Below the pieces are notes generated by a model. It was not told the origin of the DNA. It made no database searches and was given only the letters and a program-made list of their open reading frames with translations. Made by a program: the position numbers and the translations under genes. A DNA stretch of 64,000 nucleotides from an uncultured Desulfobacteraceae bacterium. Its GTDB lineage: Bacteria; Desulfobacterota; Desulfobacteria; Desulfobacterales; UBA2156. The stretch's first letter is position 1; every line of letters begins with the position of its first letter. Location of the stretch: assembly GCA_964596535.1 (NCBI GenBank), contig CAZQUR010000004.1, positions 33 to 64,032 on the forward strand, given 5' to 3'. Shown here one piece after another: positions 38,251-58,468 of this stretch.

Positions 38251-38409
38251 CCCTCCTTTTTCATCCTCTCCACATCCCGAATGACGGAGTCCCTTTCCCC
38301 TGATTGCAGTTCATTCTTGACACTTGTCTTGACTTTTGACAAAGTATTCCAAAGGTTATTAATGTACCCGTTACGACAAATGAAAACAAGCGTAAAGGAG
38401 TTTCTCCGA

Positions 38410-39039: not shown

Positions 39040-39777
39040 ATGCAATCGTGCGCTTCCCGTAAAATCGCCTTGATCACCGGAGGAAGCCGGGGTATCGGTG
39101 CCGCCGTTTCCTGCGCGCTCGCCCGGGACGGATTCGACATCTGGCTGAATTACCGCAACAACCACGATGCCGCCGCTGGGGTCGCCCATGCGGTGGAAAC
39201 GATTGGAAGCGCCTGCCGCCTTGTTCCCTTCGACGTGACCGATCCGGAAAAGATCGAAGCACTGCTGGGAACGCTCCTGGAGACCCAAACCCCCTATGCT
39301 CTGGTCAACAATGCCGGCTTCAGCCGGGACGCCCTCATGGTCTGGATGACCCGATCGGAATGGAAAACCGTACTGTCCGTTTCCCTAAACGGCTTTTTCC
39401 ACGTCACCAAGCCGGTGCTCCACGCCATGCTCCGGAAACGGGAAGGACGGATCATCAACATCGTTTCCACCTCAGGCGAAAGCGGCATGCCCGGACAGGT
39501 CAATTACAGCGCCGCCAAAGCCGGGCTCATCGGCGCCACCAAGGCCCTGGCCAAGGAAGTGGGCAAGCGGAATGTACTGGTCAATGCGGTGTCTCCCGGA
39601 TTCATTCAGACGGAAATGACCGAAAAACTTCCGGGGGACAAGATTCTCCCCACGATTCCCTTGGGACGGTTCGGGACCCCCCAAGAAGTCGCCGCCGTGG
39701 TTTCTTTTCTGTGTTCGGAAAAGGCCGCTTATATCACAGGCCAGGTGATCGGCGTGAACGGGGGCATCTATATATAA
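39040..39777 (+). CDS. 3-oxoacyl-ACP reductase (SDR, FabG-type ketoreductase)
   Basis: Motifs IALITGGSRGIGAAV, LVNNAGF, NYSAAKAGLIGATKALA. Confidence 0.9.
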   Translation: MQSCASRKIALITGGSRGIGAAVSCALARDGFDIWLNYRNNHDAAAGVAHAVETIGSACRLVPFDVTDPEKIEALLGTLLETQTPYALVNNAGFSRDALMVWMTRSEWKTVLSVSLNGFFHVTKPVLHAMLRKREGRIINIVSTSGESGMPGQVNYSAAKAGLIGATKALAKEVGKRNVLVNAVSPGFIQTEMTEKLPGDKILPTIPLGRFGTPQEVAAVVSFLCSEKAAYITGQVIGVNGGIYI

Positions 39778-39813
39778 CCCATCGGGCTTGCACGGCCCGG
39801 TAGTAAGGGACCC

Positions 39814-41034
39814 ATGCATCGCGTCGCCATCACCGGTATCGGGATCGTTTCCTGCCTGGGCAATGACATCCGCTCCGTTTCCACGGCGCTCCGGGAAGGA
39901 AAATCAGGGGTTGTCGTGGATCCCCGGCGTATACAACTGGGATTTCGAAGTCCCCTCACCGGAACCATTGCGAATTTTGAGTTAACGTCTCCCCTTCACC
40001 GGAAATATCGAAAAACCATGCCCGATTTTTCCGTGTGGGCGTACGGAGGCGTGCTGGAAGCCCTCCGGATGGCGGGTCTTTATCCCGGGGCAATCCAAAA
40101 CGAAGAAACCGGCCTGATATTCGGCTGCGATTCCAGTTGCGGGGCGGCTGTCCAGCAGGTGGACCTGCTGAAAAAACATCGGGAAACCAAATCCATCGGA
40201 AGCGGTTGGATCTTTCGTTCCATGACCTCCAATGTCACCATGAACCTGAACACCATCCTGAAAACCCGGGGCGCGTGCTGGACCGTCAGCGCCGCCTGTT
40301 CCAGCGGCGGGCATGCCGTGGGACAGGCCGCCGATCTCATCGCTTCGGGAAGACAGGAGCGGGTCATTTGCGGGGGTGCCCAGGAAATCAATTGGGAAAC
40401 GGTGTGCAGCTTTGACGGATTGGGGGCCTTTTCCACGCGGATCCAGGATCCGGAAACCGCATCCCGGCCATTTGACCGGGACCGGGACGGATTGGTTCCC
40501 GGCGGTGGCGCCGCCGCCCTGGTGCTGGAACGGATGGACAGGGCCCAAGGCCGGAATGCGCCGATTCTGGGGGAAATCCTTTCCTATGCTTTTTCTTCAG
40601 ACGGCGCGTTTCTCTACGTGCCCAGCCGGGACGGCCTGAAACGGGCCATGCAACAGGCCTTGAAACGCGCCCGCATGACGCCTTCGGATATCGGCTACAT
40701 CTGCGCCCACGCCACGTCCACCCAGGAAGGGGACGCCGCCGAAGCGGAAAACATTTATGCGGTCTTTTCGGATCGCTGCCCGCCCGTTTCGTCCACCAAG
40801 TCCATGACCGGCCATGAACTGTGGATGTCGGGCGCCTCCCAGGTCGTATACTCCACGCTGATGGCCCGAGACAATTTCATCGCGGCGAACATGAATTTCA
40901 CGGCCCCGGACGAACACACGAAGAAATTGAACATCGTCACGGAAACGCAACACAAAGGGCCCGAAACCGTCATGTGCAACTCCGCCGGGTTCGGGGGGAC
41001 CAATTCCTGCCTGATTTTGGGGTTTGCGCGATGA
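39814..41034 (+). CDS. beta-ketoacyl-ACP synthase (KS 1, Cys-His-His type)
   Basis: Motifs TVSAACSSGGHAVG, CAHATSTQEGD, MTGHELWMSGA. Confidence 0.9.
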   Translation: MHRVAITGIGIVSCLGNDIRSVSTALREGKSGVVVDPRRIQLGFRSPLTGTIANFELTSPLHRKYRKTMPDFSVWAYGGVLEALRMAGLYPGAIQNEETGLIFGCDSSCGAAVQQVDLLKKHRETKSIGSGWIFRSMTSNVTMNLNTILKTRGACWTVSAACSSGGHAVGQAADLIASGRQERVICGGAQEINWETVCSFDGLGAFSTRIQDPETASRPFDRDRDGLVPGGGAAALVLERMDRAQGRNAPILGEILSYAFSSDGAFLYVPSRDGLKRAMQQALKRARMTPSDIGYICAHATSTQEGDAAEAENIYAVFSDRCPPVSSTKSMTGHELWMSGASQVVYSTLMARDNFIAANMNFTAPDEHTKKLNIVTETQHKGPETVMCNSAGFGGTNSCLILGFAR

Positions 41035-42521
41035 AATTCGACTATGCCGTCATCGGCGCCGGCGCATCGGGCATGAGCGCCGCCGTCATACTGGCCAAGC
41101 ATGGATACTCGGTGGCCCTCATCGAAGCGGCCCACACCGTCGGGCCCCTGTTGCGGGGTTTTGAACGGAAAGGGATCTATTACGATACGGGATTCCACTA
41201 CACCGGCGGCCTCCACAAAGGCGGGGTGCTGGATATTTTCTTTCGGTATCTCGGGATCATGGAACATATCGAACCGGTACCCTTTGATCCGGAGGGCTTC
41301 GATCTGATCCGCTTTTTTGCACCCGATAGGGATTTCCTTTTTCCATACGGCTATGACCGCATCCGCGATCGGCTTTTGAAGGCCTTTCCCAAAGAACGCG
41401 CCGCCGTTGACGCCTATCTCGGCGCGGTCAGGGAAAGCTTTCAATCCAGGCCCTATCTCAATTTGGAAAAGGAATTTTCTCCTCTCCAGGAATTGCACAG
41501 CGTCCACGGCCCGAGCCTGAACGACGTCCTGGACCGCTTGAGCCCCGATGCGGCTCTCAAACACATCCTTTCGGCCCACTGTTATCTGCACGGTGCCGCG
41601 CCCGGCGATGTTACGTTTACCCAGCACGCGGCGGTGGTCGGATCCTACTACGAATCCGTTCACGGGCTCCGGGGGGGCGGCGCCAGCCTCGTTCACGCAT
41701 ATGAAAAGACCCTTTTCGACCACGGCGTCACCGTATTCTGCGGGAGGCGCGTTTCCGGAATCGATCTTTCCTTTCAGGGAAAGCCCGAGAGTGTCCGCCT
41801 GGCAAACGGAGAACACATCTCCTGCAGGGCCTGTATCGTTTCCATCCACCCCCGACGAATGCTTGAGCTGTTACCCTCCGAACGTTTCAGACCCTCTTAT
41901 GTCCGCCGCCTGGAAGGCCTGGACGAAACCTCTTCGGCTTTTATTCTTTATGGAAAAAGCCGGTCTTTACATCAGCGGCTGAACGGAAAAAACATTTTCT
42001 CTTTTTTTTCGTCCGCAGAAAACGGCTTCCGGGAAAAAGGGCCTTTGCATCGGCGCCCCCTCTTCATTTCATCGGCCGTACCGAAAAACAGCGCGTCCAC
42101 CGAACCGGGATTTATCGCCATCTGCCCCGCCACGCTGGGTCAGGCCGGGGCATGGTTGCATTCCTGCCCGGGGAAACGCCCCGGAGGATACCGCATCTTT
42201 AAAGCCCGTGTGATGGAGATGCTCAAAGATCGGGTTCGGGAAAGCTGCCCGGATATATCGGAGGACATTGAAATCGTGGAAGGCGCAACCCCACTGACAC
42301 TGCGGGATTTTTCCCACAGCCCCGCCGGGAGCCTTTACGGCGCGAAACATCGGGTGGGCCAATACAATCCCGTGTCCCTCACCCGCATCGACGGGCTTTA
42401 TCTTGCGGGGCAAGCCGTGGTGGCACCGGGCGTTCTCGGGGCCGTCATATCGGCTTTTCTGGCCTGCGGGAACATCCTGGGGCATGACCGCCTCCGGAAG
42501 GAATTGAACGCATGCCGGTAA
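41031..42521 (+). CDS. FAD/NAD(P)-dependent oxidoreductase, phytoene-desaturase (CrtI)-like family
   Basis: ATG 41031 overlaps the KS stop (ATGA). N-terminal dinucleotide fold YAVIGAGASGMSAAVILAKHG; ~500 aa, as in amine-oxidase/CrtI-type enzymes. Confidence 0.75.
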   Translation: MKFDYAVIGAGASGMSAAVILAKHGYSVALIEAAHTVGPLLRGFERKGIYYDTGFHYTGGLHKGGVLDIFFRYLGIMEHIEPVPFDPEGFDLIRFFAPDRDFLFPYGYDRIRDRLLKAFPKERAAVDAYLGAVRESFQSRPYLNLEKEFSPLQELHSVHGPSLNDVLDRLSPDAALKHILSAHCYLHGAAPGDVTFTQHAAVVGSYYESVHGLRGGGASLVHAYEKTLFDHGVTVFCGRRVSGIDLSFQGKPESVRLANGEHISCRACIVSIHPRRMLELLPSERFRPSYVRRLEGLDETSSAFILYGKSRSLHQRLNGKNIFSFFSSAENGFREKGPLHRRPLFISSAVPKNSASTEPGFIAICPATLGQAGAWLHSCPGKRPGGYRIFKARVMEMLKDRVRESCPDISEDIEIVEGATPLTLRDFSHSPAGSLYGAKHRVGQYNPVSLTRIDGLYLAGQAVVAPGVLGAVISAFLACGNILGHDRLRKELNACR

Positions 42522-43750
42522 ATCGCGTCGTTGTCACCGGAATGGGCGCCGTTTCACCGTTGGGCCGGGGCGCGGATGCACTTTTTCGGGGTTTGTCCCA
42601 AGGAAGAAGCGGGATCCGGTTTCAACCCGAGACCGCCGCCGTCCAGGGACTCCGGAGCCATGTGGCGGGTCGTGTCATGGATGTGGATCCCAAGGAGGTG
42701 CCGCGGAAATATCGCCGATCCATGTCGGCCGGATCCCTTTTTGCCGCCGTAGGGGCCCGGGAAGCCCTCATCCAGGGAAACCTCCCGGAGAACCTGCGGA
42801 CCCGCGAAGATTTCGGGATCGCCATCGGCTCCACAGTGGGGAGTGTCGGAACCCTGGAAGAATTTTTCAGGGAATATTTCTCCGATTTCTGCCTGGAACG
42901 GATGCGCTCCACCCTGTTTTTCAAGATCATGAACCATTCTCCGGCCTCCAACGTGACGCAGATCCTGGGCATCCGGGGGCGCACCCTGGCGCCGGCGGCC
43001 GCTTGTTCCACCGGATGCCAAACGGTGGGAATCGGTTTCGAAACAATCGCTTCGGGAAAACAACGCTTCATGCTCTGCGGCGGAACCGATGAATTTCACC
43101 CCCTTTTCACCGCCACCTTTGATATCATGAACGCGGCGTCCACCCGTTACAACGAACATCCCCACCGAACCCCCCGTCCCTTTGATCGGGACCGGGACGG
43201 CGTGGTGTGCGCCGAAGGCTGCGGGATTCTCCTTTTGGAATCTCTGGAGTCGGCACTGGAGCGGGGCGCACCGATTTTAGCGGAAATTGCAGGGTTCGCC
43301 ACCCTCTCGGACCCATCCCACATCGCCCACCCGGATGCCGCCTCCATTGTCTCTTGCATGCGGGCCTGTCTCGAAAATGCGGGCTTGAAACCGAAAGCGA
43401 TTGATTATATTAACGCCCATGCCACGGCCACCACGGAAGGGGATGCCGCCGAGTGCGCGGCCATCCGCAAACTCTTTGGCGGCGCCACGGCCGTGAGCAG
43501 CCTCAAGGGGCACCTGGGTCACACCATGGCGGCCAGCGGGACCCTGGAACTGATGGCGTGCATCTTCATGATGCAGCAAAATCGGATGGTCCCCACGTTG
43601 AACCTCGATCACGTGGATCCGGCCTGCGGAGGAATCCGGCATGTCCGCCGCGTTGAAGAAAAATCCTTGCAGTGGATTTTAAAAAACAATTTTGCCCTTG
43701 GGGGCGTCAACTCTTCGGTGCTGCTGCGGAGATTCAACCGTGACGGATAA
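42512..43750 (+). CDS. beta-ketoacyl-ACP synthase (KS 2)
   Basis: Motifs APAAACSTGCQTVG, NAHATATTEGD, GHLGHTMAASG. Overlaps the upstream gene by 10 nt. Confidence 0.9.
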   Translation: MPVNRVVVTGMGAVSPLGRGADALFRGLSQGRSGIRFQPETAAVQGLRSHVAGRVMDVDPKEVPRKYRRSMSAGSLFAAVGAREALIQGNLPENLRTREDFGIAIGSTVGSVGTLEEFFREYFSDFCLERMRSTLFFKIMNHSPASNVTQILGIRGRTLAPAAACSTGCQTVGIGFETIASGKQRFMLCGGTDEFHPLFTATFDIMNAASTRYNEHPHRTPRPFDRDRDGVVCAEGCGILLLESLESALERGAPILAEIAGFATLSDPSHIAHPDAASIVSCMRACLENAGLKPKAIDYINAHATATTEGDAAECAAIRKLFGGATAVSSLKGHLGHTMAASGTLELMACIFMMQQNRMVPTLNLDHVDPACGGIRHVRRVEEKSLQWILKNNFALGGVNSSVLLRRFNRDG

Positions 43751-44003
43751 GGAAATCATCGAAAAAATAAACACGGCGTTGGCCGGGGAATTCGAGCTGG
43801 ACGAGGCGTCCATGGTGCCTGAGGCGCATCTTTTCGACGACCTGGAACTCGACAGCCTGGACCTGGTGGACATGGTGATTGTCCTGGAGCAAACCTTTGG
43901 ATTTAAAATCCGGGAAGAAGAAGAAATCCGCAGCATCCGGACCCTGGGAGATATTCACGCCTTTGTCATCCGCAAGCGACACCAGAGACTTCAAAGTTCC
44001 TAA
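43740..44003 (+). CDS. acyl carrier protein (ACP 1)
   Basis: GTG 43740 overlapping the KS stop. Phosphopantetheine site DLELDSLDLVDMV. 87 aa. Confidence 0.8.
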   Translation: MTDKEIIEKINTALAGEFELDEASMVPEAHLFDDLELDSLDLVDMVIVLEQTFGFKIREEEEIRSIRTLGDIHAFVIRKRHQRLQSS

Positions 44004-44810
44004 ATGGCTTTCCGCAAAAACCCTGAAAAAAAGGATCATCCGCCGAAAACGGTCCCCGGATCCATGTGGGCCTGTTTTCTGATGACCCTGACGGTCTATC
44101 CTCTGCTCAGCTTGTGGACACTGGGCGGCATGGCTGTATTCCCCGCGGCCTTTTTGCTCTTCAAGTTCGGCACCCGGTGGTCCACCGAACGGATCGTTCG
44201 TTTTTTCATCTGGATCTACGGAAGGGGATGGATCGCCCTGGTTTTTCCCTTTGTCCGGTTCTCGCGGAAGGGCCTTGAAAAAGCCGCATCGATGCAGCCG
44301 GTAATCCTGGTGGTGAACCATTTAAGCTTTTTCGACACCTACTGCATGGCGCTTCTGCCTTTTTACAATCTGGCCCTTGCCATCCGGAGTTGGCCCTTTC
44401 GCATGTATTGGTACGCGCCGTTCATGCGCATGGCCAATTATTTGGACGTGGAAACATCGGGATGGGATGACGCCTCTTTGCAGGCCAAAAAGATCCTCGA
44501 GCGGGGCGGAAACGTTTTGTTTTTTCCGGAAGGCCACCGGAGCCGGAACGGGGCGTTGGGTCGATTCTACTCGGGCGCCTTTCTCCTGGCCGTGGAAACG
44601 GGACGCCCCGTCATTCCCCTGGTGATTTCCGGGACGGATGTCCTTCTGCCCCCGGGTCGCCGGAGGCTGCATCCCGCCCGAATCCGGCTGGAAGCCCTTC
44701 CTCCGGTGGAGCCGAGGCGTTTTTCAGGACCCACCGCCCACATCCAACTGAAAAAAGTCGTGCGGGAAGCCATTGGACGGCGCCTCGAGGAGATACGAAT
44801 GGAGAGATGA
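44004..44810 (+). CDS. lysophospholipid/1-acyl-glycerol-3-phosphate acyltransferase-family protein (PlsC-like)
   Basis: HX4D motif NHLSFFD and FPEGHRSRNG. N-terminal TM segments. Confidence 0.85.
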   Translation: MAFRKNPEKKDHPPKTVPGSMWACFLMTLTVYPLLSLWTLGGMAVFPAAFLLFKFGTRWSTERIVRFFIWIYGRGWIALVFPFVRFSRKGLEKAASMQPVILVVNHLSFFDTYCMALLPFYNLALAIRSWPFRMYWYAPFMRMANYLDVETSGWDDASLQAKKILERGGNVLFFPEGHRSRNGALGRFYSGAFLLAVETGRPVIPLVISGTDVLLPPGRRRLHPARIRLEALPPVEPRRFSGPTAHIQLKKVVREAIGRRLEEIRMER

Positions 44811-45262
44811 AAACATCCCTACGCCTTCCCGTGTCCACAGAAATCCTGATTCCGCATGCACCCCCCATGCGCTGGGTGGAACATCTTTTGCGGTTCGACG
44901 GGGAAAAAGGAGAGGCGGCGTCCCACCGTCTTTCCGAAAACCCCCTTTTTTCCGATACCGCGGTCCTCCCCCTTTTTGTCATGGCCGAACTGATCGCCCA
45001 GGCCTACGCCGCCATGAAGGGATACCAGGATCTTTCGGCGGGACTCCCCGTCCGAAAAGGCTTCCTGGTGGGAATCCGCAGGATCCGGATATTCGAATTC
45101 GTTTACGGGACCCGGACCTTTCTGATTCGGGTCCGGCCCACCGGAGCCCTGGGGGGGTTTTATATGGCGGAAGGGGAGGTGACGCTGGATGGCAGGTGTG
45201 TGGCCGCGGGGAGCGTCAAGGTATGGATCCCCGGCGAAGCACAGGAAGCGCCGTTTCAATGA
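44807..45262 (+). CDS. hotdog-fold beta-hydroxyacyl-ACP dehydratase-like protein (DH 1)
   Basis: ATGA overlap. Motifs IPHAPPMRWVEHLL and FVMAELIAQAYAA are typical of the small dehydratases found in aryl-polyene-type clusters. Confidence 0.7.
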   Translation: MKTSLRLPVSTEILIPHAPPMRWVEHLLRFDGEKGEAASHRLSENPLFSDTAVLPLFVMAELIAQAYAAMKGYQDLSAGLPVRKGFLVGIRRIRIFEFVYGTRTFLIRVRPTGALGGFYMAEGEVTLDGRCVAAGSVKVWIPGEAQEAPFQ

Positions 45263-45891
45263 AACGCATTCCCGCCGTGTTTTTTATCCTTTGCTGCCTG
45301 TTTTCAACGGGAGTCGCAACCGTTTCGCCATCCGATGGGCCCGAAGAAGAAGCGCTGGAACAAATCCGGCAGTCCATGGAAGACATCCATTCCCTGGCCG
45401 GGGATTTCATCGAGGAAAAACGCTTGGTGATGCTCAAGGCCCCTGTCCTCCTTAAGGGGCGTTTTTACTACGTCAAGCCGGATCGGCTCCGATGGGAATA
45501 TTTTTCCCCGGAAGCCCAGGGGTTTGCCCTTTCCAAGGACCGGGGCATTCGATGGCAAAAGAATCCGAACCAAAGGATCCCCTTCGATCTGAATGCCGCA
45601 CCGGCCCTTCAAGGGTTTGTGGATCAGATCTTTTCCTGGATCCAGGGGGATGTGGAAAAAATTCAGAACCGCTATCGTGTTTCCGTATCCTCGGAAGATG
45701 CCGTATCCGTCCTGCTGACGCCGCGCATACCGGCGGAAAAAGCGGTCCTGGATCGGATCCTCATCCGGTTCTCCCAAGATTTACGGTATGTCCGGAGCGT
45801 CCATATCCATGAAAAAAACGGAGACACCTCCCGGATCCGTTTCACACAAGTCCGGATCAACCCCCCCGTGGATTCCAAACTTTTTCCATGA
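45259..45891 (+). CDS. LolA-like outer-membrane lipoprotein carrier family protein
   Basis: ATG 45259 (ATGA overlap). Signal peptide MKRIPAVFFILCCLFSTGVA. Motifs FxQ/EKRL...LKGRFYYVKPDRLRWEY typical of the LolA fold. Confidence 0.75.
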   Translation: MKRIPAVFFILCCLFSTGVATVSPSDGPEEEALEQIRQSMEDIHSLAGDFIEEKRLVMLKAPVLLKGRFYYVKPDRLRWEYFSPEAQGFALSKDRGIRWQKNPNQRIPFDLNAAPALQGFVDQIFSWIQGDVEKIQNRYRVSVSSEDAVSVLLTPRIPAEKAVLDRILIRFSQDLRYVRSVHIHEKNGDTSRIRFTQVRINPPVDSKLFP

Positions 45892-51053: not shown

Positions 51054-52318
51054 AGATGCAACTGGTCTATCCCTACTGGCCCAAGCTCAACCGGCAGACC
51101 GAATTTCACCTGCCGCCCCATGGTCCCGTGGTCTTTGCCGCCCAGGTGCCGGAGTGGGTGACCCTCGAGTTTGTCGATGAAAACGTGGACCCCATGATCT
51201 TTGACGAAACGGTCGATCTGGCGGCCCTTTCCGTGATGCTCACATGTCAATTGCCCAGGGCCTTTGAAATCGCCGACCAATACCGGCGAATGCAGATCCC
51301 TGTCATTATGGGAGGCATCGCCGTGAGTTTGCACGCCGGTGAAGCCGCCGGCCATGCCGACGCTGTCTTTCTTGGAGAAGCGGAAGGCCGATTCGAAAAC
51401 GTTTTGGAGGATTTTCGAAACGGTCGGCTTAAAAGGCGTTACGATTATCTGCATGATCCCCCCGATATCCGCCGGGTAGGCCCCGCGCGACGGGAAATTT
51501 TGAACCGGGATCGTTATGTGTACCGGGGGGTGCGGATGCTGGACTTGGTGCACGCCTCCAGAGGATGCCGGTTCCACTGCTTTCCCTGCTGCGTGGGATT
51601 TTTGGGCGGCCGGAGGTTCCGTCCCCGGCCCATCGACACGGTCATCGCGGAAATGGCATCCATTCCCAACAACCGGCTGTTTCTCGTCGACAACTCCCTT
51701 GCCCAGGACCGGGAGTGGCTCATGGAACTTTTTTCGGCCATGGTGCCGTTGAAAAAAAAGTGGGTCTCCCACCCCATCCTGGACGACGATTCGGTCCTCG
51801 AGCTGGCCGCCCGGGCCGGCTGCTGGTATGTTTATCAGGCCGTCTTTGATACTTCCGAAGTGATCCGAAATCGGATCCAGCGCCTCAAAGACCACGGCAT
51901 CGGCGTGGAAGGGACTATCCTTTTGGGCACGGACGACCAGAACGAAGACGCCATTTACCGGCTCGTCGATTTTCTCTTGGAAATCGATCTCGACATGGCG
52001 GAATTCACGATCCTCACGCCCTTTCCGCATACGCCCATTCGGGCCAAGTTTCAAAAACAAGGACGGATTCTCAGCGACGACTGGATCGAATACACATGTG
52101 ACCGGGTGGTTTTTCAACCCAAAAACATGTCGGTGGAAACCCTTGAACGGATGTACCACTATGCCTGGGACACCTTTTATGAAAAGGCCCCTTGCCAGTG
52201 GAAGATGGGAGAACTCTTTCAAAAAGTCATCCGCAAAGAAATGGCCGACGGCACCTATCGCCGATTCGAGGAAAAGGTGCCCCGAACGCCCCGTTTTTTA
52301 AGAAATCAGGAATCGTAA
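51050..52318 (+). CDS. B12-binding-domain radical SAM enzyme 1
   Basis: ATGA overlap. N-terminal Rossmann-like B12-type domain, then CxxxCxxC in HASRGCRFHCFPCCVG. Confidence 0.85.
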   Translation: MKMQLVYPYWPKLNRQTEFHLPPHGPVVFAAQVPEWVTLEFVDENVDPMIFDETVDLAALSVMLTCQLPRAFEIADQYRRMQIPVIMGGIAVSLHAGEAAGHADAVFLGEAEGRFENVLEDFRNGRLKRRYDYLHDPPDIRRVGPARREILNRDRYVYRGVRMLDLVHASRGCRFHCFPCCVGFLGGRRFRPRPIDTVIAEMASIPNNRLFLVDNSLAQDREWLMELFSAMVPLKKKWVSHPILDDDSVLELAARAGCWYVYQAVFDTSEVIRNRIQRLKDHGIGVEGTILLGTDDQNEDAIYRLVDFLLEIDLDMAEFTILTPFPHTPIRAKFQKQGRILSDDWIEYTCDRVVFQPKNMSVETLERMYHYAWDTFYEKAPCQWKMGELFQKVIRKEMADGTYRRFEEKVPRTPRFLRNQES

Positions 52319-52347
52319 ATTCCCTTTTGTAACAGACGTGATCCTTC

Positions 52348-53796
52348 ATGGTGAAAGCAAACGCGAAGAAAATCCTGCTGGTGCATCCCTTGGGGTATGC
52401 CGCCCACTCGGCGGGAAAAGACATTTCCCGGATCGCCAACATCATGCCGCCCTTGGGACTGGCAAGCCTGGCAGCCTATTTGGCGCAAAAGGGGGTGCAA
52501 AGCCGCCTCGTCGACTGCTTTGCCCGACCCGGTGCCGGCCGACGGATCCGGGATTTTCTGATCAGCGAAAAACCGGCGGGGATCGGGATCTCCTGTACCA
52601 CGTCCGGGTTTCTGGACGGCATACGCATCGCCCGGATGGCCAAGGCGACCCTTCCCGGCATAAAAACCGTCTTCGGGGGCCCCCATGTCTCCGCCCTCAA
52701 AGAAAAAACCCTGGCGGAGTGTCCCGAGGTCGATTTCATCGTGACGGGGGAAGGGGAGGAGAGCCTTGCCGAGATCATCGAGAACGGATATGAAGGATCC
52801 CGGGAGATACGGGGGATCGCCTTTCGGGAAACCCCGGAAGCAATCCGGTGGACCGGCCCCCGGACCGGCCTGGACCTGGATACGCTCCCCTTTCCGGCCT
52901 ATGAAAAGCTCGACGGGTTTCCCGAGGGTTATCGACTTCCCATCTTCAATTATCCCCGATCCCCCCATACGAGCTGCATCTCCAGCCGGGGGTGTCCTTA
53001 CGGGTGCAGCTACTGCGACCGTTCCGTCTTCGGATCCGGTTTCCGGTTCAACAGCGCCGAATATCTTTATGCCCACTTGAGGTATCTGAAAGACCGGTTC
53101 GGCATCCGGCATGTGAATTTTTACGATGACCTGTTCACCTTCCACCGCCGGCGGGTGAAAAAATTCACCCGGATGATGATCGACCGCCCGTTGAACATGA
53201 CCTTCAACTGCGCCGTGCGCGCCGAACACATCGATTCCGATCTGTTGAGACAGATGCGGGCCGCAGGGTGCTGGATGATCAGCCTGGGAATTGAAACCGG
53301 GGATCCCGCCTTGTTATCCCGGCACCGCCGCCATGCGGACTCGGCGTGCATCGCCGAGGCCGTGCACCGGATCAAGGCCGCCGGCATCCGGGCCAAGGGG
53401 CTTCTGATGATGGGGCTTCCCGGGGAGACGGAAGAAAGCATCCAGATGAGCATGGATTTTGTCTTTTCGCTCCCCCTCGATGATTTCAACCTCACCAAGT
53501 TCACCCCCTTTCCCGGCGCTCCCTTGTATGACCGGATCCGCGAACAGGGACGTTTTGAAGAAGACTGGGAAAAGATGGATTGCATGCATTTTGTCTTCAT
53601 CCCCAAGGGAATGACCCGGGAGGTCCTGGAAAAACGATTTCAGACTTTTTATAAAAGACATTTCCTGCGCCCCCGCACCCTCACGGGATACGCGGGCATG
53701 CTGTGGCACTCTCCGGAAAGCTGGGCGCGCTTTATCCGGCACCTGCCCGATTTCATCCGGTTTGCAAAGACAAACGAACGCCTGGGAGGATCCTGA
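52348..53796 (+). CDS. B12-binding-domain radical SAM enzyme 2
   Basis: N-terminus KKILLVHPLG...PPLGLASLAAYLAQKG (B12-type domain). CxxxCxxC in SSRGCPYGCSYCD. Confidence 0.85.
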   Translation: MVKANAKKILLVHPLGYAAHSAGKDISRIANIMPPLGLASLAAYLAQKGVQSRLVDCFARPGAGRRIRDFLISEKPAGIGISCTTSGFLDGIRIARMAKATLPGIKTVFGGPHVSALKEKTLAECPEVDFIVTGEGEESLAEIIENGYEGSREIRGIAFRETPEAIRWTGPRTGLDLDTLPFPAYEKLDGFPEGYRLPIFNYPRSPHTSCISSRGCPYGCSYCDRSVFGSGFRFNSAEYLYAHLRYLKDRFGIRHVNFYDDLFTFHRRRVKKFTRMMIDRPLNMTFNCAVRAEHIDSDLLRQMRAAGCWMISLGIETGDPALLSRHRRHADSACIAEAVHRIKAAGIRAKGLLMMGLPGETEESIQMSMDFVFSLPLDDFNLTKFTPFPGAPLYDRIREQGRFEEDWEKMDCMHFVFIPKGMTREVLEKRFQTFYKRHFLRPRTLTGYAGMLWHSPESWARFIRHLPDFIRFAKTNERLGGS

Positions 53797-54964
53797 TATT
53801 TTTCCGGAAAAGACGAAAATCCTGGCCGTGATTCCGGTCTACAACCACGCCCGCACCGTAGCCGGTGTGGCCCGGAAAACACGCGCGGTCATCCCCCGGG
53901 TGCTGGTGGTGGACGACGGCAGCACCGACGCGGGGGCCGCGGTCCTTTCCGAGGTCGATGTCCCCGTCCTCCGACACCCCGAAAACCGCGGAAAGGGCGC
54001 CGCGATTTTGACGGCGGCACGCCGGGCACGGGACATGGGCATGACCCACATGATCACCCTGGACGCCGACGGACAGCACGATCCCGCCGATATCCCTGCC
54101 TTCCTTGACGCCATTCAAAAGGATCCCGAATCCATATTCGTGGGGAACCGGCGGATCTTCCCCGCCGGAACCCCTTTCTTGTCCCGGTTCGGAAAGCATT
54201 TCTCCAATTTCTGGTTCCGCGTGCAGACCGGCCGGAAGGTCAAAGATACCCAGTGCGGCTTCCGGGCATATCCGCTCTTTCTCTTCGAGGCGTTATCGCT
54301 CACCCAGAGCCGATACGCCTTCGAAGTGGAAATCCTTGTCAAGGCGGCTTGGGCGGGCATCCCCCTGAAGGATCTTGATATATCCGTGTTCTACCCGTCC
54401 AAAAGTCAGCGGGTCTCCCATTTCCGGCCCATCATGGACAATCTGCGCATCTCTATTTTGAACACCCGGTTGACTTTCCGCTCCTTTATACCGTGGCCCC
54501 ATCGACAAATCCTCAAGCCGGAAGACCCGCGGTTGCGAATCACCCCCCTGCACCCCATCCGGTCTTTAAGAATCCTTTTGAAACAGAATTTAACCCCTGG
54601 AAAAGCCGCCCTCTCCAGCGCCATGGGCGTCTTTTTGGGAACCCTTCCGGCCATCGGCTTTCATACCCTGTCGATCCTTGCCGCCTCCGGGTATTTCCGG
54701 TTGAACCGCCTGGCGGCCTTGGCCGCCGGCCAGCTTTGCATGCCCCCTTTTGTCCCGGCCCTTTGCATTGAAGCGGGGTATTACCTGCGCCACGGCCGGT
54801 TCCTAACCGAAATCTCCACGGAAACCCTGGGATACCAGGGATGGGAACGCCTCCTCGAATGGGGCATCGGATCCCTGGTGGTGGCGCCGATTTTATCCAC
54901 CGTCGTCGGCGGGGTGACGTATTTCGCCGCCCTGGGGATCACGGGCCGCTTTCATGAAAAATGA
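53762..54964 (+). CDS. family-2 glycosyltransferase with C-terminal multi-TM (DUF2062-like) domain
   Basis: Motifs LAVIPVYNHARTV, VVDDGSTDAG, TLDADGQHD. Hydrophobic C-terminal third. Start uncertain (TTG 53762 overlaps the upstream gene by 35 nt). Confidence 0.8.
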   Translation: MQRQTNAWEDPDIFPEKTKILAVIPVYNHARTVAGVARKTRAVIPRVLVVDDGSTDAGAAVLSEVDVPVLRHPENRGKGAAILTAARRARDMGMTHMITLDADGQHDPADIPAFLDAIQKDPESIFVGNRRIFPAGTPFLSRFGKHFSNFWFRVQTGRKVKDTQCGFRAYPLFLFEALSLTQSRYAFEVEILVKAAWAGIPLKDLDISVFYPSKSQRVSHFRPIMDNLRISILNTRLTFRSFIPWPHRQILKPEDPRLRITPLHPIRSLRILLKQNLTPGKAALSSAMGVFLGTLPAIGFHTLSILAASGYFRLNRLAALAAGQLCMPPFVPALCIEAGYYLRHGRFLTEISTETLGYQGWERLLEWGIGSLVVAPILSTVVGGVTYFAALGITGRFHEK

Positions 54965-55886
54965 TGCCCGCACCCGTTCCGCCCGTCGATTGAAACGCTG
55001 GACATCCCGGAGCATTGGTTCACGGTTTCAGCATCGGATCTTTTACGCCCTGATTCGGGCGGGGGGCATCCATCTGGCCTACCCCCTCCTTTACGCCGTC
55101 GTCTTTTATTATATGACGTGCAGGCCGTCGATCCGGCAAAAGACGGCCTTTTACCTGGAAAAACGCTTTCCGCAAAAAAGCGCGGCAGAACGCTTTGCGG
55201 ACAGCTGTCGGATCAGCATAACTCTGGGAAAGGTCCTCATCGAACGGGCCAAAGCCGGTATCCGGGGGCCGGAGACCCTTACGCTTTCTTTTCCCGCCAA
55301 AGCGCGCCTCTTCCGCCTCCTGGAAGAAAACCGGGGACTCATCCTGATGAACGCCCACGTGGGGGGGTGGCAGGTGATTCTGCCGGCGTTGCCCTCTCTG
55401 GGACGCCCCGTGAAAATGCTCATCGAACGGGATGCACAGGATGTGGATCTGCATTATTACGAACACGCCCGTCGCCCCCGGCCGTTCACCGCCATCGACC
55501 CCAGAGGATTCCTGGGGGGGAGTCTCGAAATGATAGGCGCCCTGGAACGGGGGGAAATCCTGTGCGTGATGGGGGACCGGGTATTCGGCAGCGATAAAAA
55601 CGTCGTCCATGTCCCCTTTTTAGGCAAAAGGGCGGTTTTCCCCTTCAGTGCCTTTAAAATCGCGTCCGTTTCGGGTGCCCCCGTCGCGGTCTTTTTTTCC
55701 CACAGGATCGGGCGGGACCGCTACGGCATCGAGATCCCGGACGTGATCCGGGTCCCCGCCGGCCTCGGGCGATCCCCCCATGCCTTTGAGCCGTATGTTC
55801 ATCGTTTCGTGGCCGCCCTGGGCGCCTATACCCGGGAGCATCCCTATCAATTTTTCAACTTCTATGATATGTGGGCGAAATCTTAG
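54954..55886 (+). CDS. LpxL/HtrB-like lipid acyltransferase (LPLAT superfamily)
   Basis: N-terminal TM, then MNAHVGGWQV (H-x4-type acyltransferase motif). 310 aa. Confidence 0.7.
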   Translation: MKNDARTRSARRLKRWTSRSIGSRFQHRIFYALIRAGGIHLAYPLLYAVVFYYMTCRPSIRQKTAFYLEKRFPQKSAAERFADSCRISITLGKVLIERAKAGIRGPETLTLSFPAKARLFRLLEENRGLILMNAHVGGWQVILPALPSLGRPVKMLIERDAQDVDLHYYEHARRPRPFTAIDPRGFLGGSLEMIGALERGEILCVMGDRVFGSDKNVVHVPFLGKRAVFPFSAFKIASVSGAPVAVFFSHRIGRDRYGIEIPDVIRVPAGLGRSPHAFEPYVHRFVAALGAYTREHPYQFFNFYDMWAKS

Positions 55887-55905
55887 AACCTTGCATCCGA
55901 TACCC

Positions 55906-56160
55906 ATGGATATCAAAACCAAACTCAAAACCATCATCGTTGAAGAATTGAATTTCGAGGACTTGACACCCGCCGAGATTCCCAACGACATCCCCCTTTT
56001 CGGTGACGGTCTGGGGCTCGATTCCCTCGATGCCGTGGAACTTGTGGTGCAGATCCAAAAGTACTTCGGCGTGCAAATCAAAAACATGGAGGAAGGCCGC
56101 ACAGCCTTTCAGTCCGTCAACGCCCTTGCGGCATTCATCGCGGAGCGACTCCCGGAATGA
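55906..56160 (+). CDS. acyl carrier protein (ACP 2)
   Basis: ATG 55906. Phosphopantetheine site GLGLDSLDAVELV. 84 aa. Confidence 0.85.
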   Translation: MDIKTKLKTIIVEELNFEDLTPAEIPNDIPLFGDGLGLDSLDAVELVVQIQKYFGVQIKNMEEGRTAFQSVNALAAFIAERLPE

Positions 56161-57359
56161 ATGCCCCGGTGCCTGTGGCCGTTACCGGTATGGGGTGTAT
56201 CTGCGCCGCGGGAAAAGATTTTCCCGCCTGCGTGCAAACCCTTTTCTCCAAAGATCCGGATCCGAAACCACCGTCCCGCTTCACCGCCCGGCACCCGGAA
56301 ACCCATCCGGTTTTCGAGATCGAGGCATCGACCCTCACCGATCTTCACTCCAAGGAAGATCTTTCCGTCACCGCCGCCCTCGCCGTCGCCGCCGCCCGGC
56401 AGGCTCTGGAAGACGCCGGATGGGATCCGGAAGCCTTGAGCCGGGTGCGCACAGGGGTGTGCATGGGCACCACCGTGGGATGCACCCTGAACGACGAGGC
56501 GTTTTACCGCACCTATCGCTCCGGGACGCTGCCGGACCTGTTTCCCGTCCGGCGCTTCCTTTCGAGCAACCCGGCGGAAGCCGTCGCAAGAACCTTCGAT
56601 CTTTCCGGACCCTGCCTCACCCTTTCCAATGCCTGCTGCTCCGGCGCGGATGCCATCGGCATCGCCATGTCATGGATCCGCCGGGGGATTTGCGACGTGG
56701 CGATTGCCGGAGGCGCCGACGAATTGTCCCGAGTGACCTACAACGGGTTCATCGCGCTGATGATTACCGATACCCGTCCCTGCCGGCCGTTTGACCGGGA
56801 TCGAAACGGATTGAACCTGGGGGAAGGCGCCGCCGTGATGATCCTGGAACCGGAAGCCTCCCGGCGGGTTCGGAAACGGGCGCCCCGGGCCTTTGTCCTG
56901 GGGTATGGATCGGCCGCCGACGGGTACCATCTGACGGCGCCGGACCCCGACGGCGCCGGACTCCGGCGCGCCGCGGGCCATGCCTTGTCCGCGGATGGAA
57001 AGACCCTTTCCCGTATCGCTTTCGTGGCGGCCCACGGGACCGGAACAAAAGACAATGACGCCGTCGAAGCCCGCGTCCTCGACGCCCTGCTCCCGGGAAT
57101 CCCCTTCTTTTCCACCAAGGGGCACACCGGTCACACGCTGGGGGCCGCCGGGGCGATCCAGGCCGTACTGGCGGCCGCCTGCCTCAATAGAAGAACGATT
57201 CCCGGAAGCGCCGGTTTTTCCACCCCCGATCCCCAACTCCCGGCACACCCCACGCGTTATCCCCGGACGATCCGCGGCGATCTGGCCCTTTCCGAGTCCC
57301 TCGGATTCGGGGGCGCCAACGCGGTGTTGCTCCTGGAACGCGGAGAGGATTCCTCTTGA
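56157..57359 (+). CDS. beta-ketoacyl-ACP synthase (KS 4)
   Basis: ATGA overlap. Motifs LSNACCSGADAIG, AAHGTGTKDND, GHTGHTLGAAG. Confidence 0.9.
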   Translation: MNAPVPVAVTGMGCICAAGKDFPACVQTLFSKDPDPKPPSRFTARHPETHPVFEIEASTLTDLHSKEDLSVTAALAVAAARQALEDAGWDPEALSRVRTGVCMGTTVGCTLNDEAFYRTYRSGTLPDLFPVRRFLSSNPAEAVARTFDLSGPCLTLSNACCSGADAIGIAMSWIRRGICDVAIAGGADELSRVTYNGFIALMITDTRPCRPFDRDRNGLNLGEGAAVMILEPEASRRVRKRAPRAFVLGYGSAADGYHLTAPDPDGAGLRRAAGHALSADGKTLSRIAFVAAHGTGTKDNDAVEARVLDALLPGIPFFSTKGHTGHTLGAAGAIQAVLAAACLNRRTIPGSAGFSTPDPQLPAHPTRYPRTIRGDLALSESLGFGGANAVLLLERGEDSS

Positions 57360-58468
57360 AAGCCATCATCCGGGGAATCGGTGTTGTGGGGGGATTCGGC
57401 ACCGGGATTTCGACCCTGGAAAAGATCCTTGTGGATCATGGACCCTACATCGAATCCTTTGCCGTTCCGGACTGTCAGCCTTTGGGCGGAGAACCTTACG
57501 TCCCCGTCAATACCCGGAATTTGAAAGAACGGTTGCCCGCGCGATCCCTCAGGCGAATGGATCATCTTTCCCGGATGGCCCTTCTTGCCGCCGCCCTGGC
57601 CCTGGAAGACGCGGCGGATCCCGGGGAAAACGCCGACACCGGTGTCGTGGTGGCCAGCGGATACGGCGCCGTCCGTACCACATTTGCATTTTTGGATACG
57701 GTCCTGGAAGCAGGGGATGCCGGTGCCTCTCCCACCCTTTTTTCCAACTCGGTGCTCAACGCCCCCGCCGCGTACATCTCCATGCATCTGGGGGCGAGGG
57801 GCCCCAATCTCACGGTGAGCCGATTTGAAATGTCCTTTTCGGATGCCCTTTCCATTGCCGTGCAATGGCTGGAAGAAGGGCGCGCCCCTTCGGTCCTGGT
57901 GGGAGGGGTGGATGAATGGTGTCCGGTTTTGGGCCACTGCCATCATCGTTTTTCTAAATCCCGGGACGCGGCGGCCTTTTTGAGCCCTTTCGGCGCCGGC
58001 CGGGAGCGTGTCCGGATCGCCGAAGGGTCGGTTTTTTTCCTGTTGTCCCCGGAAAAGGAACCCGCATCGGGATACGGTGTCGTGGAATCCGTTGAAAGCG
58101 GACGTTTGCCCCGGGACACACCGACCTTCCCGAAAAACGCCGTGATTCTCACCGGGATCGACAGCCACCGGGATTCGGCCCGGCAGCCCCTTCCCGAGGA
58201 TCGCAGGGTCGTGGACTACACCGGCTATTACGGGACATTGCCTGTGGGGACGGGATTTGATATGGCCATTGCAAGCGTGATCGTGCGGCGGGGACGCCTC
58301 TTTTCTGCACCGGATTCCACCGGAAGCGAAACGGTCGTCGATGGGTTCCAAACCGAAAAAACGCCGAAAATCCGAAGGGCGTGCTGCTTGAACATCACCC
58401 CCTCCGGCGCCTACGGCCTCATCACCCTCGCCTCAGGCCCGGATTTTTCGGAAAACAGCAAATTTTAA
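57356..58468 (+). CDS. KS-related protein with active-site Cys replaced (chain-length-factor-like 2)
   Basis: Overlaps the KS 4 stop. TVSRFEMSFSDALSIA stands where a KS has xxAC(S/A)S. Confidence 0.7.
   Translation: MKAIIRGIGVVGGFGTGISTLEKILVDHGPYIESFAVPDCQPLGGEPYVPVNTRNLKERLPARSLRRMDHLSRMALLAAALALEDAADPGENADTGVVVASGYGAVRTTFAFLDTVLEAGDAGASPTLFSNSVLNAPAAYISMHLGARGPNLTVSRFEMSFSDALSIAVQWLEEGRAPSVLVGGVDEWCPVLGHCHHRFSKSRDAAAFLSPFGAGRERVRIAEGSVFFLLSPEKEPASGYGVVESVESGRLPRDTPTFPKNAVILTGIDSHRDSARQPLPEDRRVVDYTGYYGTLPVGTGFDMAIASVIVRRGRLFSAPDSTGSETVVDGFQTEKTPKIRRACCLNITPSGAYGLITLASGPDFSENSKF

Follow-up and report, generated by a model that had tools for sequence, protein, structure and literature searches.

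What would be made by an operon that has nearly the whole parts list of an aryl-polyene (APE) pigment cluster and no genes for the aryl starter unit by which such clusters are defined? The question is raised by 20 genes at positions 39040-58468 (plus strand) of a 64,000-nt stretch of DNA from an uncultured Desulfobacteraceae bacterium (contig CAZQUR010000004.1 of assembly GCA_964596535.1), which was analysed at its full length and is referred to below as the window. Besides type II fatty acid synthase/polyketide synthase (FAS/PKS) genes, the operon encodes a CrtI-like enzyme and two radical S-adenosylmethionine (SAM) enzymes of the B12-binding type, and the initial annotation of the window had taken these to stand in place of the aryl starter, implying a rare cluster. 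The explanation that we favour, with a probability of roughly 60%, is that of an APE/flexirubin-type type II PKS/FAS operon with CrtI-like and radical SAM enzymes built in, a reduced form of a family widespread among anaerobes, whose product would be a polyene-type lipid destined for the outer membrane (OM).

Genes were modelled from the list of open reading frames (ORFs), and proteins were assigned to families by Pfam and NCBIfam scans. The 20 genes are intact and all lie on the plus strand. They are listed here with the short names used throughout (KR, ketoreductase; KS, ketosynthase; CLF, chain-length factor; ACP, acyl carrier protein; DH, dehydratase; rSAM, radical SAM enzyme).

39040-39777, plus strand: KR, a 3-oxoacyl-ACP reductase of the short-chain dehydrogenase/reductase type, ApeQ/FlxB-like (Pfam adh_short_C2, E 7e-58)
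39814-41034, plus strand: KS1, a FabB-like ketosynthase (Pfam ketoacyl-synt N- and C-terminal domains; Cys-His-His triad)
41031-42521, plus strand: CrtI-like, a flavin adenine dinucleotide (FAD) enzyme of the CrtI/amine-oxidase family, 'phytoene-desaturase-like' (Pfam Amino_oxidase, E 6e-17; NAD_binding_8)
42512-43750, plus strand: KS2, a FabF-like and ApeR-like ketosynthase (Pfam; Cys-His-His triad)
43740-44003, plus strand: ACP1 (Pfam PP-binding; DSL motif)
44004-44810, plus strand: PlsC, a PlsC-type (LPLAT) acyltransferase (Pfam Acyltransferase, E 3e-17; HX4D motif at H106)
44807-45262, plus strand: DH_P, an ApeP-like hotdog dehydratase (31-sequence profile)
45259-45891, plus strand: LolA, a LolA-like periplasmic lipid carrier (Pfam LolA, E 6e-16)
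45888-48287, plus strand: MMPL, an MMPL/RND (HpnN-like) inner-membrane lipid exporter (Pfam MMPL)
48274-48732, plus strand: DH_I, an ApeI-like hotdog protein (PDB 3esi_A, E 5e-4; 6qsr_A, which is ApeI, E 0.006)
48701-49159, plus strand: thioesterase of the 4HBT/YbgC type, ApeK-like (Pfam 4HBT_2, E 2e-13)
49138-50292, plus strand: KS3, the ketosynthase partner of the short CLF (Pfam; Cys-His-His triad)
50289-51053, plus strand: CLFs, a truncated KS-like protein of 254 aa (weak Pfam ketoacyl-synt match, E 7e-7)
51050-52318, plus strand: rSAM1, a radical SAM enzyme with an N-terminal B12-binding-type domain (Pfam B12-binding, 33.6 bits)
52348-53796, plus strand: rSAM2, a radical SAM enzyme with an N-terminal B12-binding-type domain (Pfam Radical_SAM, E 7e-25; B12-binding, E 1.5e-23)
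53762-54964, plus strand: GT2, a fusion of a GT2 glycosyltransferase with DUF2062 (Pfam Glycos_transf_2, E 6.5e-22; DUF2062, E 3e-11)
54954-55886, plus strand: LpxL, an LpxL-family (lipid A-type) acyltransferase (Pfam Lip_A_acyltrans, E 6.6e-11)
55906-56160, plus strand: ACP2, ApeE-like (Pfam PP-binding; DSL motif)
56157-57359, plus strand: KS4, an ApeO-like ketosynthase (Pfam; Cys-His-His triad)
57356-58468, plus strand: CLF4, a full-length KS homologue resembling chain-length factors (Pfam ketoacyl-synt and Ketoacyl-synt_2)

Fifteen junctions overlap by 4-35 nt, at exactly the 15 starts that the initial annotation had listed, and ACP1 and PlsC abut with no spacer. Only three short gaps occur, between KR and KS1 (36 nt), rSAM1 and rSAM2 (29 nt), and LpxL and ACP2 (19 nt, with the ACP2 start at 55906). 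GT2 may start at TTG 53762 or at ATG 53828, and the gene caller gave shorter forms of KS2 and of the DH, and the same ACP2 start (ATG 55906). The expected motifs are intact: Cys-His-His in the four ketosynthases, DSL in both ACPs, CxxxCxxC in both radical SAM enzymes, HX4D in PlsC and YxxxK in KR. The scans thus bear out the initial description of one compact operon whose parts are those of APE clusters and which also includes a CrtI-like gene and a pair of B12-type radical SAM genes. Positions 39040-58468 contain a complete operon that is probably translationally coupled. No operon gene reached the cutoff of a function-specific NCBIfam equivalog model; only generic FabG and ACP models were passed.

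The operon was compared by BLASTP with the APE cluster of E. coli CFT073 (apeA-apeR, NC_004431.1 1143727-1158748). Shared with this system and with that of Xenorhabdus doucetiae (6QSP, 6QSR) are an ApeQ-like KR, an ApeR-like KS2, a pair of dehydratases of the ApeI/ApeP type and two ACPs. KR is 42% identical to ApeQ and scores 316 bits against the NCBIfam FlxB model (cutoff 340), passing the FabG model NF004200 (287.7 bits, cutoff 273). KS2 and ApeR are reciprocal best matches (38% identity); ACP1 is 42% identical to ApeF and passes PRK05350 (70 bits, cutoff 65), and ACP2 is 47% identical to ApeE and passes PRK09184 (72 bits, cutoff 70). A profile built from 31 orthologues of DH_P and searched against the PDB retrieved ApeP first (6qsr_B, E 1.1e-14) and FabZ structures next (about 1e-8); the single sequence matches Pfam only at E 0.024, and a precomputed Pfam ApeP-like match is recorded. 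DH_I matches E. coli ApeI weakly (25% identity, E 5e-4), again with a precomputed Pfam ApeI-like match on record.

Two further ketosynthases, KS3 and KS4, are ApeO-like (37% and 36% identity), and each is paired with a CLF that has no catalytic Cys. The top NCBIfam match of KS3 is AmcF (228 bits, cutoff 325), and the catalytic Cys is invariant among the orthologues of both enzymes (82/82 for KS3, 58/58 for KS4). CLFs, which directly follows KS3 in all mapped loci, has neither Cys nor His in the catalytic columns and is missing the C-terminal half. CLF4 has Glu at the position of the catalytic Cys and no Cys-His-His triad, and Glu or Asp occupies that position in 37 of its 46 orthologues. The top PDB matches of KS4 and CLF4 are two partner chains (9s5h_B, E 3e-52, and 9s5h_C) of a FabF-like heteromer, which is probably the anammox amxFabF2/amxFabFmut pair of a 2026 preprint. 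An enoyl reductase is missing from E. coli APE as it is from the operon, where Pfam scans found such a domain in none of the 20 operon genes.

The set for anchoring and export is likewise shared: a thioesterase (33% identical to ApeK, and 43-66% across the window's own family), an LPLAT acyltransferase, a GT2 with an LpxL-type acyltransferase, LolA and MMPL. In E. coli, ApeJ fuses a GT2 to an acyltransferase; the window's GT2 aligns with its N-terminal half at 33% identity and LpxL with its C-terminal half at 25%. MMPL shows 22-26% identity to ApeM and falls below the cutoffs of the HAE3 and HpnN models, and LolA and PlsC match ApeL and ApeD at the level of the Pfam family only. In contrast, the window has no counterparts of ApeH (the starter-activating ligase), ApeB (a SAM methyltransferase), ApeG, ApeN (DUF3261) and ApeA, and E. 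coli has none of KS1, the CrtI-like enzyme, a second KS-CLF pair, rSAM1 and rSAM2. KS1 has no specific counterpart there, its top match being ApeR (33%); it is best matched in NCBIfam by the FabB model PRK07967 (360 bits, below cutoff) and is 57-69% identical across syntenic loci. Unlike the E. coli and Xenorhabdus APE clusters, the window-type family is carried mostly by anaerobic lineages.

Genes for an aryl starter were sought through the whole window, by Pfam on flanking and upstream ORFs and by tblastn with the ligase and lyase of relatives. In agreement with the initial annotation, which had found none in the operon, neither an adenylating enzyme nor an aromatic ammonia lyase nor a SAM methyltransferase is present in the operon, in its flanks or in the rest of the 64 kb, and the search just outside the operon, where an ammonia-lyase or adenylation gene would have pointed to an ordinary APE cluster, found none either. 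In order to place this absence, an rSAM1 alignment was scanned against one genome per species, and gene maps were drawn by tblastn of the window proteins, and of additional genes of relatives, on 80 genome loci and 80 metagenome loci (designated L below). Counts of starter genes and of a third radical SAM gene, rSAM3, refer to the 80 species loci, 48 being informative for the starter position and 74 for rSAM3; a metagenome scan was also seeded with the lyase so as to reach the 5' parts of lyase-bearing clusters.

The maps show one conserved order, beginning with KR, KS1, CrtI-like, KS2, ACP1, PlsC, an optional ligase and lyase, DH_P, LolA, MMPL, DH_I and the thioesterase, continuing with KS3, CLFs, rSAM1, rSAM3, rSAM2, GT2, LpxL, ACP2, KS4 and CLF4, and ending in relatives with an optional PagL-like gene, DarG, DarH and an ABC transporter. 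The window is colinear with this order throughout. A ligase, a lyase or both directly precede DH_P in 27/48 informative loci, inserted right after a PlsC gene that keeps its position, and PlsC adjoins DH_P in the other 21/48. In the window these two genes overlap by 4 nt, with no remnant of a starter gene. The ligase of the relatives is FlxY/PaaK-like (460 bits, cutoff 520) and the lyase of the HAL/TAL type (FlxA, 468 bits, cutoff 700). The module varies: some loci have the ligase only (L053, L086, L087), some the lyase only (L019, L023, L164), and in L025 it lies after CLF4.

These clusters rule out that the CrtI-like and radical SAM enzymes replace the aryl starter, since both coexist with lyase and ligase in relatives. 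Lyase-bearing clusters have the same KR, KS1, CrtI-like, KS2, ACP and PlsC genes on the 5' side of the starter genes and carry rSAM1 and rSAM3 in the same order, with rSAM2 next wherever the locus extends that far. The CrtI-like gene is present in syntenic clusters with and without the lyase. Because they occur in lyase-bearing clusters too, the CrtI-like and radical SAM genes are to be regarded as core genes of the APE/flexirubin-like pathway. Starter-bearing and starter-less loci are mixed in a neighbour-joining tree of rSAM1, a pattern that implies repeated gain or loss of these genes.

Within this family the window belongs to a small clade. The missing enzyme rSAM3, identified in relatives by TIGR04072 (rSAM_ladder_B12, 'lipid biosynthesis B12-binding/radical SAM protein'; 671 bits, cutoff 360), occurs in 67/74 informative loci, and 5 of the 7 exceptions belong to the window's clade. 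In the window itself proteins reach only 42 and, for rSAM2, 92 bits against the cutoff of 360, tblastn gave no further match, and a mere 29 nt separate the two genes between which rSAM3 would lie. The clade is monophyletic in the rSAM1 tree, all of its members are without starter genes at the PlsC/DH_P position and without rSAM3, and the sister locus has rSAM3, from which we conclude that the window is a derived, reduced variant.

The family is anything but rare, contrary to what had been implied. Relatives of rSAM1 are found in at least 515 loci of species-representative genomes, mostly from Desulfobacterota; carriers include Desulfuromonadales, Geobacteraceae, Desulfovibrionaceae, Desulfobacterales, Syntrophus, Syntrophorhabdaceae and Desulfatiglans, and further Acidobacteriota, Nitrospirota (Thermodesulfovibrionia), Lentisphaerales, Pirellulales, Methylomirabilia and Rokubacteria. 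Among them are the cultured Desulfuromusa kysingii DSM 7343, Halodesulfovibrio spirochaetisodalis JC271, Geoalkalibacter halelectricus and Desulfuromonas versatilis. The closest relative among the matches listed is the metagenome-assembled genome (MAG) 'Deltaproteobacteria bacterium Meg22_1012_Bin_147' (JAFDGC01; 86-98% protein identity), and two public sequencing runs contain contigs with genes 99-100% identical to the window at the protein level. Clusters of this kind, combining type II FAS, radical SAM and 'phytoene-dehydrogenase' genes, were reported as early as 2009 in Desulfotalea psychrophila, Geobacter and Pelobacter carbinolicus (Rattray et al., 2009; PMC2649909), where they were compared with the anammox 'ladderane' candidates and no ladderanes were found in D. 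psychrophila. They also receive routine 'ladderane' calls from antiSMASH; expressed clusters so labelled appear in metagenome surveys of Desulfobacterota and other non-anammox phyla, with their function called unknown. By gene content and host genera the window operon is of this type, and the cluster is a reduced variant of a widespread, long-noticed and uncharacterised class. A literature search covering aryl polyenes with radical SAM enzymes in Desulfobacterota, Geobacter and Desulfuromonas, and TIGR04072, found no product assigned to it, in line with the initial annotation, and the genome paper of Pelobacter carbinolicus does not discuss the cluster. The earlier interpretation is borne out as to gene content, and not as to substitution and the implied rarity.

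Comparison with the flexirubin clusters of Bacteroidota gives a similar picture. The window has no FlxA, FlxY, DarG or DarH, and its FlxB and LolA2_flexi matches (the latter 96 bits, cutoff 125) are below cutoff, whereas its relatives carry the FlxY-like ligase and FlxA-like lyase (below cutoff) and DarG and DarH that pass the NCBIfam cutoffs. DarA and DarB were seen in none of the loci, and the NCBIfam Flx/Dar matches include no radical SAM or CrtI-like model. The lyase-less loci L027 (18939-21237), L032 and L037 have, after CLF4, a second gene resembling CrtI or carotenoid isomerases and a methyltransferase-like gene.

The likeness that the initial annotation saw to the candidate ladderane genes of anammox bacteria proved to be real but remote. 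The queries were proteins of Kuenenia, truncated to about 400 aa, from S6 Table of Javidpour et al. (2016; PMC4790861), compared by BLASTP. Two of them, the Cluster I B12 radical SAM protein kuste3608 (29.6% over 402 aa, E 3e-50) and kuste2803 (28.5%, E 7e-42), are most like rSAM1; kuste3342 is of the rSAM3/TIGR04072 type (35.8%, E 5e-85), and kuste3343 found no counterpart. The proteins kuste3336 and kuste3607 are 23-26% identical to the window CrtI-like protein, and both are nearer (29-31%) to the second CrtI-like gene found after CLF4; kuste3607 (26%) is thus closer to the other CrtI-like gene of L027. For kuste3608/rSAM1 and kuste3607/CrtI-like, such identities show homology without establishing orthology.

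The syntenic kuste3335-3352 region has been listed as glycosyltransferase, phytoene-desaturase-like (PD-like) protein, FabZ, ACP, FabG, radical SAM proteins, phenylacetyl-CoA ligase, membrane protein, several FabF paralogues, non-canonical ones among them, and a VacJ-like protein (PMC4790861). This is the same parts list as in the mapped family, from which the window differs in having neither the FlxY/PaaK-like 'phenylacetyl-CoA ligase' nor radical SAM enzymes of the kuste3342/TIGR04072 type or of the SPASM type like kuste3343. Expression of Kuenenia genes in E. coli led to no new fatty acids, nor was phytoene desaturated by the PD-like proteins (PMC4790861). The foremost candidate at present for making ladderanes is Cluster I, which is described as confined to the bacteria that produce them (bioRxiv 10.64898/2026.05.19.726425). 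Its genes, kustE3603-3608, encode amxACP, amxFabZ, amxFabF2/amxFabFmut, a PDH-like protein and a B12 radical SAM protein, and the same six protein types are present in the window, including the logic of a heterodimer of a KS with an inactive partner; the anammox KS/CLF-like FabF heterodimer decarboxylates malonyl-ACP (bioRxiv 10.64898/2026.05.19.726425). In contrast, identities are only 23-30%, and the window has 14 further genes of the APE type. We reject membership among the true ladderane clusters on account of the absent TIGR04072 enzyme, the 23-30% identity to Kuenenia proteins and the non-anammox lineage, ladderanes having been reported only from anammox Planctomycetota. The operon carries neither the starter genes that define APE nor the TIGR04072 enzyme of 'ladderane-type' clusters, and otherwise resembles both in the gene content compared. 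The ladderane pathway itself is still described as unsolved in anammox-enzyme papers of 2023 and 2026 and in a 2026 review.

Among the proteins with no counterpart in the E. coli cluster are the two radical SAM enzymes. rSAM1 has no Pfam Radical_SAM match; its motif C173x3C177x2C180 is nevertheless invariant, and the AlphaFold2 (AF2) model (pLDDT 85.5) has a radical SAM fold, closest to AprD4, TsrM and MgmA. rSAM2 carries C216x3C220x2C223 and a B12-binding domain (PF02310, 83.4 bits), with AprD4, TsrM, OxsB and TokK as closest folds. Both AF2 models are confident and have two domains, and the nearest folds also include CysS; Foldseek comparison gave TM-scores of 0.6-0.76 to AprD4, TsrM, MgmA, OxsB and TokK. 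The two enzymes share with other radical SAM enzymes of the B12-binding type (AprD4, TsrM, MgmA, OxsB, TokK, CysS, BchE and HpnJ) an N-terminal B12-binding-like Rossmann domain and the CxxxCxxC core, which are structural features of the cobalamin-dependent (class B) group. Against models of B12-type families, rSAM2 scores 175 bits for HpnJ (cutoff 577) and 169 for BchE (cutoff 481) and rSAM1 at most 43, all below cutoff.

Solved structures gave no function for either enzyme, as sequence search and Foldseek returned generic fold relatives only, with AprD4 first. The structure nearest to both is that of AprD4, which is a dehydratase rather than a methylase; methylases and OxsB come next. AprD4 is not known to use cobalamin; with such a closest fold, neither methylation nor cobalamin use can be assumed for rSAM1 and rSAM2. 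For the CrtI-like protein, the NCBIfam CrtD and crtI_fam models lie far below cutoff and PDB matches are only weak.

Both radical SAM enzymes are strongly conserved. Their identity outside the window's clade is about 55-72%, as against 24-61% for MMPL, LolA, the CLFs and the KS3/KS4 pair; rSAM1 is among the most conserved genes of the family, at 65-72% outside its own clade and across phyla, and the listed homologues of rSAM2 outside its clade are 62-70% identical. Over several hundred species of about eight phyla the pair keeps 55-75% identity. An antisense ORF of 430 aa (50930-52222, minus strand) lies within rSAM1 and is open at equivalent positions in 28 related loci; in all likelihood it is a side effect of how rSAM1 is composed and how strongly it is conserved.

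rSAM1 and rSAM2 also occur apart from the cluster. A lone rSAM1 stands in four Acidobacteriota MAGs, with 67-71% identity to that of the window (at about 10001-11260 in L024, L038 and L043, and about 1531-2751 in L039), with no other cluster gene in the fetched flanks of up to 10 kb. The neighbours, considered as a clue to function, were uninformative: they encode peptidases, an MFS transporter and a pseudouridine synthase, joined in L039 by a further radical SAM protein. Homologues of rSAM2, each with 65% identity and no KS nearby, were found in Desulfococcaceae HSG8 (L007:10001-12938), where an LpxL-type acyltransferase is the sole gene beside it and MlaC and MlaA lie a few kb off, and in an Elusimicrobia locus (L006:8326-13351), where it is flanked by a PlsC-type gene and by a gene for an 887-aa protein that joins GT2-DUF2062, methyltransferase and polysaccharide deacetylase domains, with MMPL, LolA and DUF3261 nearby. 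rSAM2 thus stays beside acyltransferase and GT2 genes even where KS genes are not near. In six loci (L026, L045, L046, L055, L060 and L064) of a Deferrimicrobium-type subgroup, a fourth radical SAM gene of the B12-binding type lies upstream of KR on the opposite strand (L060:4616-6085, minus; best NCBIfam match HpnR, 254 bits, cutoff 650).

As a tentative proposal, which we would not yet expect to hold, the rSAM1/rSAM2 pair may modify a polyketide or fatty-acyl chain on the ACP by a radical reaction not described so far and so give rise to a new class of OM lipids in anaerobes, of which the window would contain the smallest gene set for a non-aryl version. Candidate modifications would be C-methyl branching, carbocyclisation or an oxygen-independent oxidation.

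Downstream of CLF4, on the same strand, follow two genes of the Mla system.

58506-59282, plus strand: MlaE (Pfam MlaE, E 1.6e-29)
59309-60349, plus strand: MlaD (Pfam MlaD, E 1.3e-13)

They are preceded by gaps of 37 and 26 nt, respectively, and no MlaF ATPase gene is present within the window. The pair is seen only in the window's own clade (L005, L008-L010) and stands outside the conserved family core, and it may extend the transcription unit. Next, at 60387-63894, come genes for a DeoC-type aldolase, a class II aldolase fused to an SDR (702 aa) and a protein of the glyoxalase family, which are kept in the window's clade; in the metagenome loci L161 and L162, homologues of the DeoC and aldolase-SDR genes lie near a lyase homologue and an LpxL-type gene. 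Gaps from CLF4 through the aldolase-SDR fusion are only 6-37 nt. Because MlaE/MlaD and the later genes are so tightly spaced, and the terminator scan found no convincing terminator ahead of MlaE/MlaD or before about 63918, the 3' end of the operon is uncertain. Mla components recur in other settings, as MlaC/MlaA near rSAM2 in L007 and as the VacJ-like protein of the Kuenenia cluster, and a PagL-like gene lies downstream in 27 related loci; both fit an OM destination.

From gene content, motifs, synteny, distribution and homology to the Ape proteins of E. coli and Xenorhabdus we infer what kind of chain is made and how it starts, what the CrtI-like and radical SAM enzymes do, and where the product is anchored and located, as follows. 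KS3-CLFs, KS4-CLF4, KS1, KS2, KR and the ApeI/ApeP-like dehydratase pair would build an acyl chain on the two ACPs, and an unsaturated, probably conjugated polyenoyl chain is favoured because the set is an iterative type II one with no enoyl reductase. With no aryl activation encoded in the cluster, priming would most likely occur by decarboxylation of malonyl-ACP or with a short acyl unit, leading to a non-aryl polyene. One of the KS-CLF pairs could prime from malonyl-ACP, by analogy with the CLFs of type II PKS and with the anammox heterodimer; this would explain how a chain starts where ligase and lyase are missing, and predicts a non-aryl polyene. A non-aryl product is plausible. The CrtI-like enzyme may then adjust double bonds, by desaturation, isomerisation or saturation, and rSAM1 and rSAM2 may carry out radical C-H chemistry on the chain or its anchor (methylation, cyclisation or oxygen-independent oxidation). 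The thioesterase, the PlsC-type and LpxL-type acyltransferases and GT2-DUF2062 (cf. ApeK, ApeD and ApeJ) would attach the acyl chain to a lipid or glycolipid anchor, and MMPL and LolA (cf. ApeM and ApeL), possibly together with MlaE/MlaD, would move the product to the OM.

Several points weigh against this explanation. Starter genes could lie elsewhere in the genome, given that L025 has them at another position of the cluster. ACP2 would fit an aryl product, its nearest E. coli counterpart ApeE being the one on which the aryl starter is loaded in the characterised APE pathway. The chain could also end up saturated, if a housekeeping enoyl reductase acted in trans. The lone rSAM1 of Acidobacteriota and the rSAM2 of L007, accompanied only by an LpxL-type gene, show both enzymes outside KS clusters, so their substrate may be a common lipid of the cell instead of a polyketide chain. 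Promoter and terminator scans gave counts not above those of shuffled sequence and lend no support to co-transcription. Finally, as the product is known for none of the family members, every chemical statement made here is inference.

The same evidence bears on three other explanations. The operon could belong to an ordinary aryl-polyene producer that encodes lyase and ligase elsewhere or draws an aryl acid from aromatic metabolism, with an aryl polyene tailored by the radical SAM enzymes as its product, as in the lyase-bearing relatives. We consider this possible, if doubtful: the starter module is mobile in the family (ligase only, lyase only, or after CLF4), starter-bearing and starter-less loci are interleaved in the rSAM1 tree, and an ApeE-like ACP2 is accompanied by the rest of the Ape set, but neither gene is found in 64 kb, the 21 informative loci without starter genes at PlsC/DH_P include all of the window's clade, and no remnant is left at that junction. 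A cluster-encoded adenylating enzyme, ApeH, is moreover needed in the characterised E. coli and Xenorhabdus pathways, which counts against an aryl product here. We regard it as unlikely that the operon makes a modified membrane fatty acid, in which the CrtI-like and radical SAM enzymes would turn the chain from a FAS-like system, with FabI in trans, into a polyunsaturated, methyl-branched or carbocyclic one, the 'ladderane-like' or anaerobic polyunsaturated fatty acid proposed by Rattray et al. (PMC2649909). KS1 is FabB-like and KS2 FabF-like, KS4 and CLF4 match chains B and C of the FabF-like heteromer 9s5h, rSAM1 is the closest in the compared set to kuste3608 and kuste2803, and the CrtI-like protein is homologous to kuste3336/3607. 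Yet identity to the Kuenenia proteins reaches only 23-30%, the kuste3342-type enzyme (TIGR04072) is absent, the dehydratases are of the ApeI/ApeP type, and LolA, MMPL, GT2 and the acyltransferases make up the export and anchoring set of APE. Most relatives, furthermore, carry an aromatic lyase and ligase and flexirubin-type DarG/DarH; ladderanes are reported only in anammox bacteria and were not found in D. psychrophila (PMC2649909), and the Kuenenia genes yielded no new fatty acids in E. coli (PMC4790861).

A role in remodelling lipid A or lipopolysaccharide, with the LpxL-type enzyme transferring the chain to lipid A or a lipid A-like glycolipid, is in our view quite unlikely as a separate explanation; it concerns the anchor, and here it overlaps with the polyene-lipid explanation that we prefer. 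The LpxL-family gene of the operon, the PagL-like gene of 27 related loci, the recurring Mla components (MlaE/MlaD, MlaC/MlaA in L007, VacJ-like in Kuenenia) and the position of rSAM2 beside an LpxL-type gene even where KS genes are not near would all suit such a role. Against this, the LpxL match is weak (42 bits) and reaches no NCBIfam equivalog cutoff, the same domain forms the C-terminal half of ApeJ in E. coli, the PlsC-type LPLAT points to a glycerolipid anchor, and the cluster has no lipid A core genes.

On the 5' side, KR is preceded by a 790-nt gap and a divergent glutamate dehydrogenase gene (36895-38250, minus strand). An ORF of 657 aa (37012-38985, plus strand) overlaps that gene and has a marginal BamE match only; it is probably not a gene, which leaves about 790 nt of non-coding DNA upstream of KR. 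Farther away are genes of the heterodisulfide-reductase type at 7759-15191 (a CCG-domain/4Fe-4S protein, a 1136-aa NAD(P)/FAD oxidoreductase with ferredoxin domains and an FrhB-like protein), with sigma-54 and histidine-kinase regulator genes upstream of them at 3573-6967 and a further histidine kinase gene downstream at 20264-22588; these genes fit a Desulfobacterota host and are unrelated to the cluster.

What non-anammox 'ladderane-like' clusters produce has been an open question since 2009. The analysis reframes this cluster class as an APE/flexirubin-type pathway into which a CrtI-like enzyme and two or three radical SAM enzymes are built and whose aryl-starter module may be present or absent, and it supplies both the gene order of the family and natural subtraction variants, with or without ligase and lyase and with or without rSAM3 or rSAM2. 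The window adds one more member, from an uncultured lineage of Desulfobacterota, whose value lies mainly in being a minimal variant; the best route to the product leads through the cultured relatives and not through this lineage. If the relationship holds, rSAM1, as the closest relative found of anammox kuste3608 and kuste2803, has a chemistry that could also inform the unsolved ladderane pathway.

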